Source: Thermodesulfobacteriota bacterium
Lineage (GTDB): Bacteria > Desulfobacterota > Desulfarculia > JACQYL01
Assembly (NCBI GenBank): GCA_963675595.2
Contig: CAXXLZ010000002.1
Span: forward strand, 1,728,001-1,792,000
DNA: 64,000 nucleotides
Direction of reading: 5' to 3'
This document shows positions 5,341 to 53,433 of the stretch, one piece after another. Position 1 is the first letter of the stretch. Each line of letters starts with the position of its first letter. The notes under the pieces were generated by a model, which saw only the letters and a list, made by a program, of their open reading frames with translations, did not search any database and was not told where the DNA came from. A program made the position numbers and the translations under genes.

Positions 5341-5596
5341 GACGCCTCCGACGGGAAGTCGTAGAAAAAAATCAACAATGCCGATCCTATCAGGGGCGTG
5401 GGGTCAAAGCCAATGTTTTCCCCATTCCTTGAAGTCGGGTGGCGCCGTTCCCGAAGGATGAGACGTCGCGCCGGGAGTGCTTCAAAGCGCCATGAGGAGG
5501 CGCAACACAGCGGATCGCATTTCAAACGAAGTGATAAGGGTTGCCAAAGCATTCGCTTCGGATTATGGGTGGCACCGGGGACGGGTGGTCCCTTGA

Positions 5597-5746
5597 CAGG
5601 CCGTTGAAAAACGCGATCTGCGGCGTTGCGCTTCATCCCTCGTCACTGCGACGTACTCTATGTGCCTCTCATTCCTCGGGATTTGCGCGCCTTGCATGTC
5701 ATCGTTTTTCATCAACCTGTGGCAACCGGCTCTTTTCAACGGGCTG
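5597..5746. mobile_element. MITE-like element copy 1 (150 bp, TIRs, 4-bp target duplication)
   Basis: TIRs CAGGCCGTTGAAAA / TTTTCAACGGGCTG (1 mismatch), flanked on both sides by TTGA (5593-5596, 5747-5750); homologous to 49987-50134 and 11967-12197. Confidence 0.8.
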
Positions 5747-11966: not shown

Positions 11967-12197
11967 CAACGGCCCGCTGAGCAAAGGTCGGCTGCCGGAA
12001 GCGGGAGAAAGACGACGACACGGAGTGCGTCGCAGCGACCCGAAACGAAACGCGACGTCCAGAAATCGCGCCTTTCAACAACGGCCCGCTGAGCAAAGGT
12101 CGGCTGCCGGAAGCGGGAGAAAGACGACGACACGGAGTGCGTCGCAGCGACCCGAAACGAAACGCGACGTCCGGAAATCGCGCTTTTCAACAGCCCG
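11967..12197. repeat. Tandem duplication (2 x 112 bp) of a degenerate short MITE-family element
   Basis: Units start at 11967 and 12079 and differ at 2 positions; 3' part GAGTGCGTCGCAGCGAC...ATCGCGCTTTTCAACAGCCCG aligns with the reverse complement of MITE copy 1. Confidence 0.85.
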
Positions 12198-47226: not shown

Positions 47227-49818
47227 TTGAGGATCGCTTTGCTCAGGACGTCGGACAGCTTTGTCATCCACGAACTTGCCAAAGCGGTCCGGAGCCGAGG
47301 GCACACTCTCAGGGAAATTCATTTCGACACCCGAAAAGAGGCCGGCCAGGAATGGGTATTATACGACTATCGCAAGTTTCTGGATGAGGTTTTCACTTTC
47401 AAACCCCAGCTGGTGCTGTCTCTGAACCACCGCGGGCTCAACGACCACGGCGGAAAGATATCACGACTCCTGTCCTTGCTGAAAATCCCCATGTTCTCAT
47501 GGCACCTGGATAGTCCTTTCTGGAATCTGGAACCCATCCTTCTTACGGACAGCCCCTACCTCACGGTATTCTGTTTCGATCGCTCATACACCGAGCCCTT
47601 AGCGCACCTCCTGAAAGAAGCCGATGTGGCTTATCTGCCCAACGCCACGGACCCCGACCTTTTCAAGCCTCTTCCGAAAAAGCATCGAGATCGCTTCGAC
47701 CTCACTTTTGTCGGAAGTCTATGTCTGAAGACCTTCCGCAAGTTGGCCGGAAAGACGCTGGGTGTTCCACGCGATCGATTTACGGAGGTGGAGTCCTTCC
47801 TCGATGAAAATCTGGAAGCCTCGTTCTCCCTGCCCGAGTTGGCCACCAAGGCCCGAGATCGGTTTCCCGACGCCCCGCAGGACCCGGACCAGGACGCCGT
47901 GTGCCGGCTGGCGGACGAATACGAAGCCTATCGATATCGGGCACGCGCCATCACCCAGTTGCGCGACCTCAGCCTCCGTGTTTACGGTTTCGACGACTGG
48001 CTCGAAATCGTCGACCCGGAACAATTTGGCGGATGGGCCGAATATTATTCCGATCTTCCCGGTATCTACGGTTCTTCCCGAATCAATCTCAATCTATCTC
48101 GCCCGCAAGTTCGTGCGGGTCTCAATCAGCGTTTCTTCGACGTTCCGGCCGCCGAAGGCTTTTTATTGACGGATTTCCGTGAAGGGCTTCTGGAAGTATT
48201 TCCGGAAGAAGGGGAGATCGCCGTCTTTCGGGGGGAGGAAGACCTGAAACGTCAGGTCGAATGGTTTCTGTCTCATCCCGAACACCGGACACGCATGGCC
48301 AAACGAGCCCGAGAGCGGGTACTCGAAGGCCACACGTACGCACACCGAATCGACGAAATGGAACGGCACTTCAAGACGTTGGGGCCCCTCCTCAAAGGAA
48401 GGGACTTCTCCTACCTCCTGCGGTTCTGGCGTGAGGACCGGGGATTCGCCGAATCCTGTCGTATGCTGGGCCAGTTCCTTTTTCACGCCGGTGACTTCCG
48501 AGGGGGCCGTTTTCTATACGAGCAACTCGATCGGATGGGAAAGGCCGACGGCGAGGTATGGCTGCGGCTCGGGGCCATCGCTTCGAGCGAGGGAGACGTT
48601 GAGACCAGCGAGGCCTACCTGTGCCGATGCTTCGACACGGATCCGGACAGCGCCGTAGCACACTCCGTGGCCGGCGTTAACGCCGAGAAGCTGGGACATT
48701 CCGCTGAAGCGCTGGCCCATTTCCGCCGATCCATCGACCTGGGCAACGCCGACCCCAATGTGCCGAATCGAGCCGCAGCCTTAAGAGAGAAACTGCAGCC
48801 GCCCATTGCCGTTGATCCTTCCCGGCCCGGTATCGCTTTTGCGCTGGATCAGGCAAACCTGCCGTTCGGCGGCGTTCGGGTAATCCTTGAATACGTTGAC
48901 CGCCTCGCCGAACGAGGGTACCGGGTCTTTCTCCTCACCCGCCGTCCCCAGTACTCGGACTGGTTTCCCCTGCGGGTGCCCGTCGTTCCCAAGGAGCATT
49001 GGGAACAAACGTTGAACGACGTCGAAGCCGTTGTTTTCAGCCAGCATGAGCTGTACAACCACATCCCCGCACGGCACGGGCTGAAGCGCATTTTCCTGGC
49101 TCAGCACTTCTTTTCCGACGCCGGGGACCAAACACGGGCGCACCGTACCTTTTCCGATCTGTCCGTCACGCTGGTTTCCGTCTCCCGTCATGTGCGGGAC
49201 GCCGTCGAAAGCGAGATGAACCGATCATCGTTGCTGATTCACAGCGGAGTCAACCGGGATCTGTTTCATCCCAGACCTGAACTTAAGCGTGTCGCCTCCG
49301 GACCGAAAATTCTTTTCTGCTATTCCGCCAATCCCCTCAAAGGAGCGGAGCACGGCATGGAGGTCATGAAGCGGATCAAGGAGGACCAGCCGAACGTTCA
49401 GCTCCGAATGTTCGGTTTCGGGCTGAGGCCCAAAGCGGAGTTCGACTTCGAATATTTCAGATTGCCGGAGCAGGAAGCGCTCGCCCGTTTGTACGCGGAT
49501 TCCGATGTATTTCTGTCCACGTCCCGCAGCGAAGGATTCGGCCTGCCTTGTTTGGAGGCCATGGCTTCGGGTTGCGCCGTGGTTTCCACGCGCAACGGCG
49601 GCAACGCCGATTTTTGCGTACACGGAGAAAACGCTCTTCTGTGCGACTACGGAGATACGGATGAGATGGCGCGTCTTGCCGCCGGGCTACTTTACGACGC
49701 GGACCTTCAAGCAAGACTCACCGAGCGCGGCCTTGAGACCGCCCTTCGATTCTCATGGGACCGGAGCGTGGACCGCATGGAAGAAGTGTGTACGTCCGCC
49801 CACCCCTCCGACGGTTGA
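47227..49818 (+). CDS. Multidomain glycosyltransferase (CgeB/DUF3880-like + TPR + GT4)
   Basis: SRINLN, NQRFFDVPA..GFLLTD, HTY.HR; TPR middle; GG.R, EGFGLPCLEAMASG; TTG start with GGGAG RBS. Confidence 0.85.
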   Translation: MRIALLRTSDSFVIHELAKAVRSRGHTLREIHFDTRKEAGQEWVLYDYRKFLDEVFTFKPQLVLSLNHRGLNDHGGKISRLLSLLKIPMFSWHLDSPFWNLEPILLTDSPYLTVFCFDRSYTEPLAHLLKEADVAYLPNATDPDLFKPLPKKHRDRFDLTFVGSLCLKTFRKLAGKTLGVPRDRFTEVESFLDENLEASFSLPELATKARDRFPDAPQDPDQDAVCRLADEYEAYRYRARAITQLRDLSLRVYGFDDWLEIVDPEQFGGWAEYYSDLPGIYGSSRINLNLSRPQVRAGLNQRFFDVPAAEGFLLTDFREGLLEVFPEEGEIAVFRGEEDLKRQVEWFLSHPEHRTRMAKRARERVLEGHTYAHRIDEMERHFKTLGPLLKGRDFSYLLRFWREDRGFAESCRMLGQFLFHAGDFRGGRFLYEQLDRMGKADGEVWLRLGAIASSEGDVETSEAYLCRCFDTDPDSAVAHSVAGVNAEKLGHSAEALAHFRRSIDLGNADPNVPNRAAALREKLQPPIAVDPSRPGIAFALDQANLPFGGVRVILEYVDRLAERGYRVFLLTRRPQYSDWFPLRVPVVPKEHWEQTLNDVEAVVFSQHELYNHIPARHGLKRIFLAQHFFSDAGDQTRAHRTFSDLSVTLVSVSRHVRDAVESEMNRSSLLIHSGVNRDLFHPRPELKRVASGPKILFCYSANPLKGAEHGMEVMKRIKEDQPNVQLRMFGFGLRPKAEFDFEYFRLPEQEALARLYADSDVFLSTSRSEGFGLPCLEAMASGCAVVSTRNGGNADFCVHGENALLCDYGDTDEMARLAAGLLYDADLQARLTERGLETALRFSWDRSVDRMEEVCTSAHPSDG

Positions 49819-49986
49819 TACCCTGCGATCTTCATTTGCCCGGTTTCGCATTCCGGAAGATCGATTTTTTGCGACCACAAAGCCGGCTTCGATTTGGAGA
49901 GCCTTACGTAGGCCGACCCGGAGGCTTCATAGCCTCCTTGGAAAGGGAGGCCGAAACCCTCCGGAGCGGTCTTACGGCCTCTGCAA

Positions 49987-50134
49987 CAATCCGTTGAAAA
50001 AGGCCGTTTCGCAGGTTGGTGAAAGTCGAGACATGTCGAATGTGCCGATCCCGAGGACTCAAGGCGCACGTTGCGTACGTCCCGCCGACAAATGAGGAAG
50101 CGTAACGCCGCGGATCGCGTTTTTCACCAGCCTG
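49987..50134. mobile_element. MITE-like element copy 2 (148 bp, inverted relative to copy 1)
   Basis: CAATCCGTTGAAAAAGG...GATCGCGTTTTTCACCAGCCTG; colinear with the reverse complement of 5597-5746. Confidence 0.78.
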
Positions 50135-50212
50135 ATGATATGGCTGCACACGTCAATAGGGCGCAGAATTCTTCCGCCCCTTGTAACGTTGGGGTATGGC
50201 TACCATTTATGG

Positions 50213-50411
50213 AACTTCAACCTGCGGACAGAGGCGGAACCTGCATAGCGACGGTGGATCATGCTGATATTCGCGGGTTGGTTACCGCCGGACTTGGTTC
50301 GTCGCGGAGCTGCCTCTTTCTAGAGACGAGGGTTCGGCAGATGCCAGATCTCCTATCAGGTCACGAGGATTCTCCTTACCGCGGTTGCGCCCCTGCTCAC
50401 AGGTTGAAGCC
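50213..50411 (-). ncRNA. Putative bridge RNA/seekRNA of the IS110 element
   Basis: Long closing helix (CTTCAACCTGTG..GGGGCGCAACC with GGTTCCGCCTC..CGCAGGTTGAAG); contains CCTGATAG (target match) and ATATCAG (circle-junction match); boundaries approximate. Confidence 0.7.
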
Positions 50412-50475
50412 GGTGTTTTTCCCTTTTACAGTGCCGTCCTCCTTCCAAATCGAACGATATGGTGTTGATGTGAGG

Positions 50476-51582
50476 CTAAGCGGCAACGGGAACCTCTCTG
50501 GCGATCGCCCACAGAAAGGCGGCCATCTCCCTTGCAATGGCCGTGACGGCCACTTGCGACGGCTTACCCCGGGCCATCAGCCGGTGGTACCGGCCGCACA
50601 GACGCAGCTGGGCCTTCCAGCCGATCTTGCAGACCTCGGACGGCGCCTCCTCCCGCCGATCCCTCAGCCTGCGGCCCACTCGGGGCGGATAGCGATAGGT
50701 CCAGGCCCCCTGGATCAATACCCGGCGCGCATGTCCGTTGCCGGACTTGGTAATGCCTCCTTGTTTGCGCCGTCCTCCGCTGGAACTCTCCGAGGGGACC
50801 AAACCCAGATACGCCGTCAACTGCCCGGGCTCATCAAATCGCGTCATGTCGCCCACTTCGGCCACCACAGTGACGGCCACGATCAACGACACGCCTCGCA
50901 TCGATTGGAAGGCCTCCACGACCGGTTTCATAGGCCAGTGCTCCACCTGCTCGCCAATCTGCTCCACCAATCGCGCCACCCGGCGCTCGCACTCTTCAAT
51001 GGTGTCGATATACTCCTGAAAAACGATCTGCTGGGCCGGGTGTTCAAACGACTGGTCCGAAAGCCACCTCCGGTGGGCCCGGCTCCACTTCCGCGGCCCG
51101 CCGTACTTCCGACCGTGGCGCAGCAAAAAGGCGTTGAGCCGCTGTTTGGCCTTTCGCTCCGAGCTCTTGGCATCCTCCCGGGCCCTGGTCAAATCCCGTA
51201 TCGCCTCGTCCTCCACACGGGGAACATACACCCCCGTGAGTTCTCCAGCCCGATGAAGACGAGCCAGGGTGACCGCATCCCGTCGATCCGTCTTGATCCG
51301 ATCGCCGGCTCGTCGGGGCGTCAGCGAGGGCGCCACGACCGTGCAATGGATTCCCCGGGCATGCAGGTGCCGGCAAAGAACGTAGCCGCATGGGCCGGCT
51401 TCGTAGACCACCCGAAGCCGATCCTTCTTGTAGCCCAGCCGGCGAATCAATCGATCCACATCCGACGGCTCCCCGTTGATCTTGCCGTAAGATCGGACTT
51501 CTCCATCACGGGACCCTTCGGCCAGGGCAACGTCTATCGATTTCTGGTGAACATCCAATCCAACAAAGATAAAATCGGTCAT
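50476..51582 (-). CDS. IS110-family transposase/recombinase (368 aa)
   Basis: RuvC-like DEDD (GLDVH, VYEAG, KTDRRDA); C-terminal Tnp domain AYLGLVPSESSSG, ITKSGN; RBS AAGGAGG. Confidence 0.96.
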   Translation of the reverse strand: MTDFIFVGLDVHQKSIDVALAEGSRDGEVRSYGKINGEPSDVDRLIRRLGYKKDRLRVVYEAGPCGYVLCRHLHARGIHCTVVAPSLTPRRAGDRIKTDRRDAVTLARLHRAGELTGVYVPRVEDEAIRDLTRAREDAKSSERKAKQRLNAFLLRHGRKYGGPRKWSRAHRRWLSDQSFEHPAQQIVFQEYIDTIEECERRVARLVEQIGEQVEHWPMKPVVEAFQSMRGVSLIVAVTVVAEVGDMTRFDEPGQLTAYLGLVPSESSSGGRRKQGGITKSGNGHARRVLIQGAWTYRYPPRVGRRLRDRREEAPSEVCKIGWKAQLRLCGRYHRLMARGKPSQVAVTAIAREMAAFLWAIAREVPVAA

Positions 51583-51721
51583 GGCCTGCCTCCTTGGTGT
51601 TGGTTCTGTGGGCGTGCTGATTACTCGCACCATAACCCAACAACGCAGGAGATGGGCCTACTTTCCTGCACGTGCAGCCATTATGTCTAGCCTCGTCACG
51701 GCAAAGAAACCTTCACCAGCG

Positions 51722-52186
51722 CTACTTGGTTGCCGCCGCCGCTTCCCGACGATCCAGTCGGGAAAGCACACGGCCGGAGACTTCCATTGCCAGGTAAAGG
51801 ACCAGAAGCACCATGAAGACGCCGAAAAACCGCAAGACCAGCGTTCCTAGAATCCAGGTCCAGCGGTCGCCGGTGATGACCACCTTGACCGTTCCCGAAT
51901 CCCCTTCGATCAACCTGATGGAATGCCATGGCCGCGAACTCTGGTCCTCAATCAGTGTCTTTCCATTGCGCTCGCGGAATTTAACGTCTTGCTCGTTTTC
52001 CAAGACCTTCCGATAGAAATTCACGGCTTGGTCCATGCTCATTTCATAGGTGGCCGTCACACGATCTTCACTCCGAATCACGTCCTTCCCTCCTTCCATC
52101 ATTGGAACACCGAGGAAATCCTCTCCAAAGGACGCCTGTGAGCAAAGGAGCAGGGACAGCAAAACAAGAGACATGACTGTTTTCAT
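51722..52186 (-). CDS. Exported protein with C-terminal TM helix, possible OadG/gamma-like subunit (154 aa)
   Basis: Signal peptide MKTVMSLVLLSLLLCSQASFG; C-terminal RFFGVFMVLLVLYLAM resembles OadG TM; downstream of the decarboxylase beta gene. Confidence 0.6.
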   Translation of the reverse strand: MKTVMSLVLLSLLLCSQASFGEDFLGVPMMEGGKDVIRSEDRVTATYEMSMDQAVNFYRKVLENEQDVKFRERNGKTLIEDQSSRPWHSIRLIEGDSGTVKVVITGDRWTWILGTLVLRFFGVFMVLLVLYLAMEVSGRVLSRLDRREAAAATK

Positions 52187-52278
52187 AGCGATATTCCCGT
52201 TATGTGTAACCTCGTCGTCATTGCATGTACGCATACGCAAGTCTTCGGATCCGACACTTTCGGAATCCGGGGAACCGA

Positions 52279-53433
52279 TTAATCGAACATGGCGATAAAC
52301 ATCCCCGCCGCCGCCGCTGAGCCGATGACTCCGGCCAAGTTCGGTCCCATTGCGTGCATCAGAAGGTGGTTCTTCCTGTCGTACTCGAGCCCGACGAGTT
52401 CCGAAACGCGAGCGGACATGGGGACCGCAGAAACTCCCGCCGACCCGATCAACGGATTGATCTTCTCCTTGAGAAACAGGTTCATGATCTTTACCGTCAA
52501 TATCCCGCCGGCGGTGCATACGGCGAAGTCCAGCAAACCGAGAGAAAAAATCAGCAAGGGTTTCGGGCTCAAGAACGTATGCGCGTTCATGGTGGCTCCC
52601 ACGGACAGTCCCAGAAAGATGGTGACGATGTTCATGAGTGCGCCCTGCGCCGTCTCCGTCAGTCTCCCAACAACCCCGCTCTCCTTCATCAGGTTGCCCA
52701 GCATGAACATCCCCATGAGAGGAATGACGGAGGGCACCAAGACCGCGATGATGCCGCAGGCCACCAGGGGATAGAGAATCTTCTCCCTGGTCGAGACCCT
52801 GCGGAGTTGCCTCATGCGGATCTTGCGCTCTTCGGGATTGGTCAGAAGCTTCATGATGGGCGGCTGAATCAGCGGCACCATGGCCATGTAGGAATAGGCG
52901 GCCAAGGCGTTGGCCCCAAGAAGCTGAGGCGCCAGGTGCTGGGTGAGATAGATGGTCGTGGGACCGTCGGCTCCGCCGATGATGCCCACGGAAGCAGCCT
53001 CTTTCAGGGTGAACCCTGCGAGGATGGTTCCGCTGAAGGTGATGAATACCCCCAGCTGCGCGCCGGCTCCCACGATGAGCGTTTTGGGATTTGCGATTAA
53101 AGGACCGAAGTCCGTCATGGCGCCCAATCCCAGAAAAATTACGCAGGGAATGATCTCCCACTCGAGACCGTAATGGTAGATCGCCCGGATGAGTTCGGGC
53201 TGCCCTCCGTGGGCATATCCCATCAGGGGAACCAGAGGGAAATTCACCACAAAGATGCCGAAGCCGATGGGCAACAGCAGTAGGGGTTCAAAGTTCTTGG
53301 CAATGGCCAGATAGATGAAAAATCCGGCGATCACCCACATAACGACGGGCTGCCAACTCAGGTTCCATAACCCGGTGGTGTAGAAGATGCCCCACAACAT
53401 GTCGACAATGTCGTTCCATTCCATGGTCTTCAT
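52279..53433 (-). CDS. oadB: Na+-translocating decarboxylase beta subunit (OadB/GcdB/MmdB)
   Basis: [67 protein letters not shown]. Confidence 0.93.

Follow-up and report, generated by a model that had tools for sequence, protein, structure and literature searches.

An IS1111-type insertion sequence with a predicted guide RNA at the ends of a miniature repeat in a Thermodesulfobacteriota genome

The stretch analysed here, referred to below as the window, comprises 64,000 nucleotides of the genome of a Thermodesulfobacteriota bacterium (assembly GCA_963675595.2, contig CAXXLZ010000002.1, positions 1,728,001 to 1,792,000 of the forward strand), and contains an IS1111-type insertion sequence (IS) next to a copy of a miniature inverted-repeat transposable element (MITE). 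The data presented below support the view that a structured RNA from the 3' region of the IS guides insertion at CCTGnT^A (a caret marks the point of insertion throughout), and hence to MITE ends, an interpretation to which a probability of about 0.85 is attached. Four of the five copies of the IS in this genome lie 2 bp outside a MITE end because the motif CCTGnT^A is made up of the final 4 bp of the terminal inverted repeat (TIR) of the MITE together with the 4-bp flank of the repeat.

In the proposed mechanism the 3' non-coding region of the element would encode a structured RNA of the seekRNA, or bridge RNA, type, which would be produced and bound by the transposase. The 5'-side guide of this RNA, CCUGAUAG, would span the insertion point and pair there with one target strand, and the 3'-side guide, UCUCU-AGA, would repeat the opposite flank followed by the end of the IS. 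Together the two guides may direct the DEDD transposase to CCTGnT^A, with insertion occurring in one orientation and generating no target duplication. The inserted form would be a circular copy of the IS, in which a promoter is likely assembled at the junction, and the neutrality of MITE ends may help the inserted copies to persist.

Results

Five copies of the element share a target motif

A BLAST search of the element against the whole genome (6.79 Mb, three contigs) identified five full-length copies of the IS (1553-1554 nt aligned, 97.8-100% identity), the ends of which are all alike to the base, while partial or stand-alone copies of the IS or its RNA region were not detected in the same search at E<=1e-5. 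The element has the look of an active IS. The flanks of the five copies, in window orientation, are as follows.

Copy 1: CAGCCTGAT^AGCC, at a MITE right end
Copy 2: CAGCCTGAT^AGGG, at a MITE right end
Copy 3: CAGGCTGAT^AGGG, no MITE (around G000:C2 4267805-4269356)
Copy 4: CGGGCTGCT^ACAG, at a MITE left end (G000:C2:4106369-4107920)
Copy 5: CAGCCTGTT^AAAA, at a MITE right end (G000:C2:4494744-4496295)

All five sites conform to the flank pattern GsCTGnT^A. The four copies at MITE termini (three right ends and one left end) are in one orientation, with the right end of the IS, the side that carries the RNA region, facing the MITE, and each splits the 4-bp flank of the repeat. In copy 4 the MITE duplication GTAG...GTAG is intact and the IS resides inside one copy of the duplication. 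A first-pass annotation of the window, prepared from its letters alone, had described the IS as starting 2 bp after the MITE end, which is borne out by the junction, and had suggested that the flanks of all copies be inspected for MITE ends, where four of the five are indeed found. Its expectation that other insertions would not lie away from MITE ends held for these four copies and failed for copy 3, which occupies a non-MITE look-alike with the same 8-nt motif. This copy splits a gene for a multi-PAS hybrid histidine kinase of >1000 amino acids within a PAS domain; the two halves of the gene (L003:2-1501 and L003:3057-4562) encode PAS, HisKA, HATPase_c and receiver domains.

The MITEs that adjoin the IS copies are diverged from one another and have differing outer flanks, and the insertions are therefore independent. 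As MITE ends constitute only ~1-2% of the sites with the shared motif, the placement of four copies out of five at these ends exceeds chance. Over window positions 49700-52100, contigs from four sequencing runs end at the IS boundaries and contain no empty site and no circle junction; in one run the copy-2 locus is occupied by the IS.

A predicted target-binding loop carries two guides

The RNA analysis drew on a family set of 80 metagenome loci encoding proteins that are 50-63% identical, 64 of which extend at least 300 nt beyond the stop codon. The match between guide and target was evaluated in 38 loci, comprising the window copy and 37 relatives with recognisable ends and sufficiently long flanks; three more relatives were left out as their flanks are too short. 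The features of the target-binding loop in the window are as follows.

50306..50375, minus strand: target-binding loop of the predicted seekRNA/bridge RNA, with stems GGAG/CUCC and CCUC/GAGG and an inner hairpin (consensus structure from 36 sequences)
50353..50360, minus strand: 5'-side guide CCUGAUAG, complementary to target positions -2 to +6
50319..50326, minus strand: 3'-side guide UCUCU+AGA, a repeat of the left flank's end and of the AGA at the IS left end

The target of the 5'-side guide is CT^ATCAGG in transposase orientation, equivalent to CCTGAT^AG in window orientation, and the guide itself reads CCTGATAG on the transposase-sense strand at 50360-50353. This sequence, which the first-pass annotation had put forward as the guide, falls within a predicted seekRNA/bridge-RNA target loop, at the position that the guide takes across the family. 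An exact complement to the locus's own target that spans the junction is at least 6 nt long in 31 of the 38 loci, at least 7 nt in 25 and at least 8 nt in 19, compared with 133 matches among 1380 mismatched RNA/target pairs, a figure inflated by loci with similar targets. The complementary stretch is 6-10 nt long and usually spans target positions -1 to +7, while the guide stretch is located 180-245 nt from the right end, always directly past the conserved sequence GGAGAAyCCUCG.

The 3' side of the loop consists of a variable segment followed by AGA, and the terminal bases of the left flank recur in the 5 nt that precede AGA. A run of at least 3 nt equal to the left flank is evident in 25 of 35 loci, compared with 7.1% of 1174 mismatched pairs. 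A complement to the top strand located 5' of a match to the bottom strand is also the order reported for IS1111 seekRNAs in the accessible text of PMC11187229. With respect to structure, 96.5% of cells in the loop stems are paired across the 36 sequences, whereas the proportion falls to 41-54% when the partners are slid. Compensatory changes are apparent in 9 of the 12 loop pairs, and the covariation score was reached by none of 500 shuffles (0/500).

Two additional segments were evaluated and rejected. The sequence GAAAAAC (50421-50415), considered as an extra RNA segment for the MITE repeat, is a chance likeness; it is mutated in copy 5, whose target keeps GAAAAAC. UAUCAG (50269-50264) was ruled out as a second target guide, being invariant in the family and equal to the donor junction.

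Guide variants track their targets

Natural variation in the guides provides a further view of their role. Copies 1-3 contain the guide CCUGAUAG and are inserted at (C/G)CTGAT^AG; copy 5 contains CCUGUUAG, with a U at 50356, and is inserted at CCTGTT^A. The private differences of copy 5 number 26, of which 22 are within 223 nt (50323-50545) and 4 in the other 1329 nt. The 223-nt block reaches from the last part of the gene into the non-coding region and takes in the entire target loop. This distribution suggests that copy 5 is a mosaic, in which the guide module was exchanged by recombination with a diverged relative that is not in this genome. Taken alone the match between guide and target in copy 5 is suggestive, as substitution at random at that density would, by the author's rough estimate, give such a match with a probability of ~0.05. 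The 3'-side guide of copy 5, UCUGU-AGA, corresponds to the left flank of copy 4 (TCTGT^AG) and not to its own flank, which fits a guide RNA acting in trans between copies but could be chance.

An unrelated complete genome from the same phylum (G268) contains two variants of a 60% identical relative whose guide pairs are distinct, and each pair matches the target at which its variant is inserted: CCGCCGCUA/UUU at TTT^AGCGGC and ACCACCUA/GUU at GTT^AGGTGG. The comparison of guide variation with flank variation, an approach that the first-pass annotation had advocated, thus finds copy 5 and the two G268 variants tracking their own targets. In total G268 holds three copies of the relative (L117, L124 and L125); two are in an identical duplicated context, from which the third departs in both its guides and its target.

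Several observations weigh against guide-directed insertion as set out above. Seven of the 38 family loci lack an exact match of at least 6 nt, although by eye five of the seven are off by just 1-2 mismatches. The 3'-side guide of the window copy agrees with its flank at just the two final bases (CT), the left flank of copy 5 is a poor fit to that copy's own 3'-side guide, and the site of copy 4, GCTGCT^AC, matches just five of the eight guide positions. A match to the guide is by itself no predictor of MITE ends, at which only 2 of the 126 empty CCTGATAG sites are located. A promoter scan revealed no promoter-like site on the transposase strand within the integrated element. Finally, the sample consists of five copies from a single assembly.

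Guide matching and the bias towards MITE ends

The extent to which guide matching explains the MITE bias was explored through the sites that the IS does and does not occupy. Outside the IS copies the 126 empty CCTGATAG sites comprise, in addition to the 2 MITE ends, 17 that are otherwise intergenic and 107 in coding sequence according to a crude gene model. The data fit either the loss of genic insertions or an additional recognition of MITE ends, and five copies cannot separate the two.

The first of these explanations, that the guides specify just an ~8-11-nt motif found genome-wide and that the MITE bias is a survivor effect arising from the loss of genic insertions, is a tentative one that has a real chance, somewhat short of even, of being correct. 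It is consistent with the 107 of 126 empty sites that fall in crudely predicted coding sequence, and with the observation that one copy does interrupt a gene, that of the multi-PAS histidine kinase. It is also in keeping with the mostly bad matches of MITE ends to the 9-nt guide: 10 of 323 unoccupied MITE ends have no more than one mismatch to the 9-mer, the commonest count being four mismatches, and there are ~1220 such sites genome-wide. By contrast, both occupied exact sites are MITE ends (Fisher p=7e-4 relative to all others), and when only intergenic exact 8-mers are considered, two of four MITE-end sites are occupied compared with 0 of 17 elsewhere (Fisher p=0.029), which argues against a survivor effect. 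The looser motif CTGnTA points in the same direction, with 4 of 48 MITE-end sites occupied compared with 1 of 713 others (p=7e-5), though this comparison is confounded as MITE ends match more guide positions. The location of copy 4 at a MITE end, despite its poor guide match, is likewise at odds with a survivor effect. A composite pattern that combines both guides and allows wobble yields 42 empty sites, and the two occupied sites, one a MITE end and one not, are too few to decide the bias. The proposal in the first-pass annotation that MITE ends serve as safe landing sites therefore stands in so far as four of five copies are found there; with only 10 of 323 unoccupied ends at one mismatch or fewer, however, the pattern is partly an outcome of selection and does not amount to a demonstration of pure targeting.

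It is unlikely that MITE ends are recognised by more than the guides, either through the transposase reading the TIR or through a DNA structure formed by the inverted repeats of the MITE. Such recognition would account for the enriched occupancy of MITE ends relative to equally matched sites, and for copy 4, inserted at a MITE left end with 5/8 guide matches. In addition, the CAGCC of the MITE TIR, which is present in three of the five targets, resembles the IS subterminal repeat GCAGCCAT. The numbers are, however, tiny, and the CAGCC likeness is 5 nt out of register with the crossover and absent from copies 3 and 4. Nor was any further RNA complementarity to the MITE found, the sole candidate, GAAAAAC, being mutated in copy 5. 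It is similarly doubtful that this IS1111-type recombinase is a parasite specialised on the ends of another mobile element, detecting in the MITE terminus a further TIR sequence or DNA structure. In that case the guide module would be swapped between IS lineages by recombination, a possibility to which the mosaic copy 5 points, and would follow variants of the MITE end.

A reversed order of events, with the MITE inserting beside IS ends, or a spread of the IS among MITEs by homologous recombination, is highly improbable: although IS and MITE lie side by side in four of five cases, the IS copies are 97.8-100% identical whereas the neighbouring MITEs have diverged and differ in their outer flanks, the GTAG...GTAG duplication at copy 4 is intact with the IS inside one of its copies, the far side of each IS is unique and so offers no second homology arm, and copy 3 is not associated with any MITE.

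Anatomy of the element

Guide-directed insertion of the kind favoured here is in keeping with the organisation of the element. On the basis of its ends and its transposase, the segment at window positions 50137-51688 is assigned to the IS1111-type members of the IS110 family. Its features, other than those of the RNA, are as follows.

50137..51688, minus strand: whole insertion sequence, 1552 bp, running from AGACATA... to ...CATATC in transposase orientation; its ends are common to the five copies and relatives have the same termini
51682..51688, minus strand: left terminal extension AGACATA, 7 nt
51670..51681, minus strand: left subterminal inverted repeat ATGGCTGCACGT
50476..51582, minus strand: DEDD transposase gene, 368 amino acids, motif GLVPSESSSG (Pfam, NCBIfam and translation)
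50140..50153, minus strand: right subterminal inverted repeat ACGTGTGCAGCCAT (transposase orientation)
50137..50139, minus strand: right terminal extension ATC, 3 nt

At the left of the element in the window the sequence reads ...TTTTTCACCAGCCTG (ending at 50134), AT (50135-36) and then ^GATATGGCTG..., and at its right ...TATGTCT (ending at 51688), ^AG (51689-90) and CCTC. The ends of the IS are thereby fixed to within one ambiguous A (51689) that is assignable to either side. The extensions of 7 and 3 nt are supported by the five copies and by the consensus of empty MITE ends, and the termini AGACATA-ATG...CAT-ATC are found in most of the metagenome relatives. The subterminal inverted repeat, ATGGCTGCAC, is perfect over 10 bp and matches at 12 of 14 positions when extended, with a 2-nt indel; in relatives a repeat of 10-18 bp occupies the same place, and about 11-13 bp is characteristic of the IS1111 group. 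The non-coding sequence amounts to 339 nt 3' of the transposase gene compared with 106 nt before it. According to the accessible text of PMC11187229, the traits of the IS1111 family are subterminal inverted repeats, 7-nt and 3-nt extensions, a long non-coding region downstream, the motif GL-P----S(T)G and a transposase of 330-350 amino acids.

The transposase contains the Pfam domains PF01548 (DEDD; E 1.1e-16) and PF02371 (E 3.3e-22), and scores 276 bits against the NCBIfam model NF033542, 'IS110 family RNA-guided transposase', for which the cutoff is 140. Homologues of 368-372 amino acids cover 98-100% of the query, and comparison with the PDB gave weak matches only, to the C-terminal part of ISCro4 and IS621 (8wt6, E 6e-7). 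A permissive Rfam scan of 49000-52500 returned nothing at E<=1. An open reading frame of 863 amino acids at window positions 47227-49818 (plus strand) stops 170 bp upstream of the MITE, and the region containing the IS and the MITE is the intergenic space that follows it.

Candidate donor loop and junction promoter

A second conserved module of the RNA region, downstream of the target loop, is a candidate donor loop, and a candidate promoter element is located near the right end.

50249..50304, minus strand: candidate donor-binding loop, with stem CGACG/CGUCG, inner hairpin GCGG/CCGC and the 3'-side sequence AUAUCAG (50270-50264)
50151..50156, minus strand: outward-facing TTGACG, read from the sequence; TTGAC is present in 35/35 aligned right ends

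One pair of the inner hairpin GCGG/CCGC is C-G in 24 sequences and U-A in 11. The sequence AUAUCAG equals the junction formed by the right and left ends, ATATC^AG, and is almost invariant. In a single covarying case, L113, the right end is ...ATATG and the RNA contains AUAUGAG, while in the nine-locus L071 subgroup the right end is ...CATGAG and the RNA contains CAUCAGAG, with one mismatch. No donor match was found on the 5' side of this loop. A duplicated two-base core, as in IS621, is not supported: the AG of the element is found at every left junction, whereas at the right junctions the target supplies AT, AA or AG. The right flanks of relatives start with AG or AA.

When the ends are abutted, as in a circle, TTGACG falls 17 nt from CATAAT (51685-51680), an arrangement that would form a junction promoter. 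Such promoters have been described for the IS1111 family (accessible text of PMC11187229).

The MITE family

The repeat next to the IS, and the flank that the IS splits, are positioned in the window as follows.

49988..50134, plus strand: diverged copy of the 152-nt MITE family, with TIRs CAGsCCGTTGAAAAA and TTTTTCAACGGCCTG (nhmmer)
50135..50136, plus strand: first half (AT) of the 4-nt MITE flank ATAG split by the IS, the right side of the target in transposase orientation
51689..51690, plus strand: second half (AG) of the split flank, the left side of the target in transposase orientation

The window stretch 49988-50136 matches positions 2-152 of the 152-nt repeat model (nhmmer, E 4.5e-28). 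A two-round nhmmer search, started from the four MITE copies next to an IS, identified 254 matches in the genome (187, 60 and 7 on the three contigs), of which 139 are near full length for the model and 106 are full length under a stricter definition. Both ends of the MITE read TTTTTCAACGGsCTG followed by a weakly conserved nT^A(A/G)GG (168 right ends and 125 left ends). The repeat behaves as an old MITE with a 4-bp target-site duplication because 15 of 102 copies have identical 4 bp on either side, compared with 1.9 expected from shuffled pairings; most copies are now without a duplication. A strict, non-exhaustive search for an autonomous partner, based on end patterns (79 end words), gave no pair with a spacing of 400-5000 bp, the two nearest pairs being separated by 5102 and 5890 bp.

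The unoccupied copies that the first-pass annotation had cited for their non-matching flanks are present in the window as quoted, at 5596-5746 (flanks CCTGTCAA and GCTGTTGA) and at 12130-12197 (flank CCCGGAAA). Partial right halves of the MITE at 12018-12080 and 12130-12197 are 112 bp apart and have the same starting flank (aaagacgacgACACGGAGTGCG); the two halves represent a tandem duplication of local extent in which part of a MITE is contained.

Discussion

Insertion into repeats is already familiar from the family to which the element belongs: ISPa11 and ISPpu9 are found in repetitive extragenic palindromic (REP) sequences, and IS4321 in the inverted repeats of transposons. The present element resembles the IS1111-type element that targets the TIR of another mobile element, although the host in that case is an autonomous transposon and here it is a 152-bp non-autonomous repeat.

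Within the window's order, which is represented by five genomes, the element occurs in the window's own genome only, while a 400-genome sample of the phylum contains seven genomes with relatives that are 55-61% identical. A search of genome contigs with a single protein returned only one irrelevant fragment of 41% identity. Protein homologues number in the thousands, some of them 75-90% identical; the metagenome scan, in which DNA context is available, gave relatives of 50-63% identity only. Ten relatives on separate metagenome contigs (L046, L056, L058, L070, L072, L077, L100, L107, L115 and L062) are inserted at T^AACGC(T/G)..., which is followed by a GC-rich palindrome such as GCGGCTCAGCCGC, and a further group is inserted at AGCCGTATAAC. 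Both types of site look like REP-like repeat targets in other hosts.

The closest parallels to the mechanism proposed here are provided by ISEc11, ISKpn4, ISPst6 and ISPa11, as portrayed by Siddiquee et al. 2024 (PMC11187229, accessible text). In common with those elements, the IS encodes a DEDD transposase with the motif GL-P----SG, and has subterminal repeats and extensions of 7 and 3 nt. It also shares with the IS1111 elements in that account a long downstream non-coding region, two RNA segments that match opposite target strands in the same order, the lack of a target duplication and natural reprogramming. It differs from them in the size of the transposase (368 amino acids compared with 330-350), in that the RNA described here is a prediction, and in the target, which is a MITE end plus its flank rather than a REP, attC or linear site.

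For 93% of IS1111 elements, the work on IS621 (Durrant et al. 2024, PMC11208160, accessible text) predicted a bridge RNA in the right end. As in IS621, the two sides of the target loop are predicted to pair with opposite strands of the target, and the natural targets are repeats; in IS621 the donor is paired in like manner, a role for which the present element has a candidate loop. In IS621, however, the RNA is in the left end and a CT core is common to donor and target (PMC11208160), whereas here the donor contributes AG and the targets AT, AA or AG. The wild-type target of IS621, ATCAGGCCTAC (PMC11208160), resembles the target of the present element in transposase orientation, ATCAGGCTG, which is taken as a coincidence between unrelated repeats. 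ISPpu9 from Pseudomonas putida is, according to the accessible text of PMC12288879, also an IS110-family element with copies in REP repeats, and its transposase gene is followed by a gene for a small RNA. For ISPpu9, additional free-standing copies of this RNA gene are described; none were found here at E<=1e-5.

The first-pass annotation knew of no description of an IS of this type paired with a MITE. Such a pairing has, however, been published for Coxiella burnetii, in which 20 of 21 IS1111 copies reside in the MITE QMITE2 (Wachter et al. 2018, PMC5896051, accessible text). The two systems are alike in that the copies are mostly in one MITE family (20/21 in Coxiella and 4/5 here), and differ in phylum, in the MITE family and in the position of the site. 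In Coxiella the IS enters a GTAG REP that lies in the MITE itself, at 10-20 bp from the 5' end of the repeat (PMC5896051), whereas the present element is located 2 bp outside the TIR, in the 4-bp flank. Both the mechanism and the pairing of IS with MITE are thus already described, and knowledge of how such elements work is unchanged. What is distinct here is the exact site, 2 bp outside the TIR and in the duplicated flank of the MITE, together with the host lineage and the natural guide variants.

The locus is a clean natural illustration of RNA-guided insertion, in which five near-identical copies can be viewed together with their targets, a guide variant tracks its target, and a 223-nt block appears to have been exchanged. 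The conserved two-guide loop, which is a feature of a large and mostly metagenomic IS1111-type clade, could be used to predict the targets of these elements straight from sequence.

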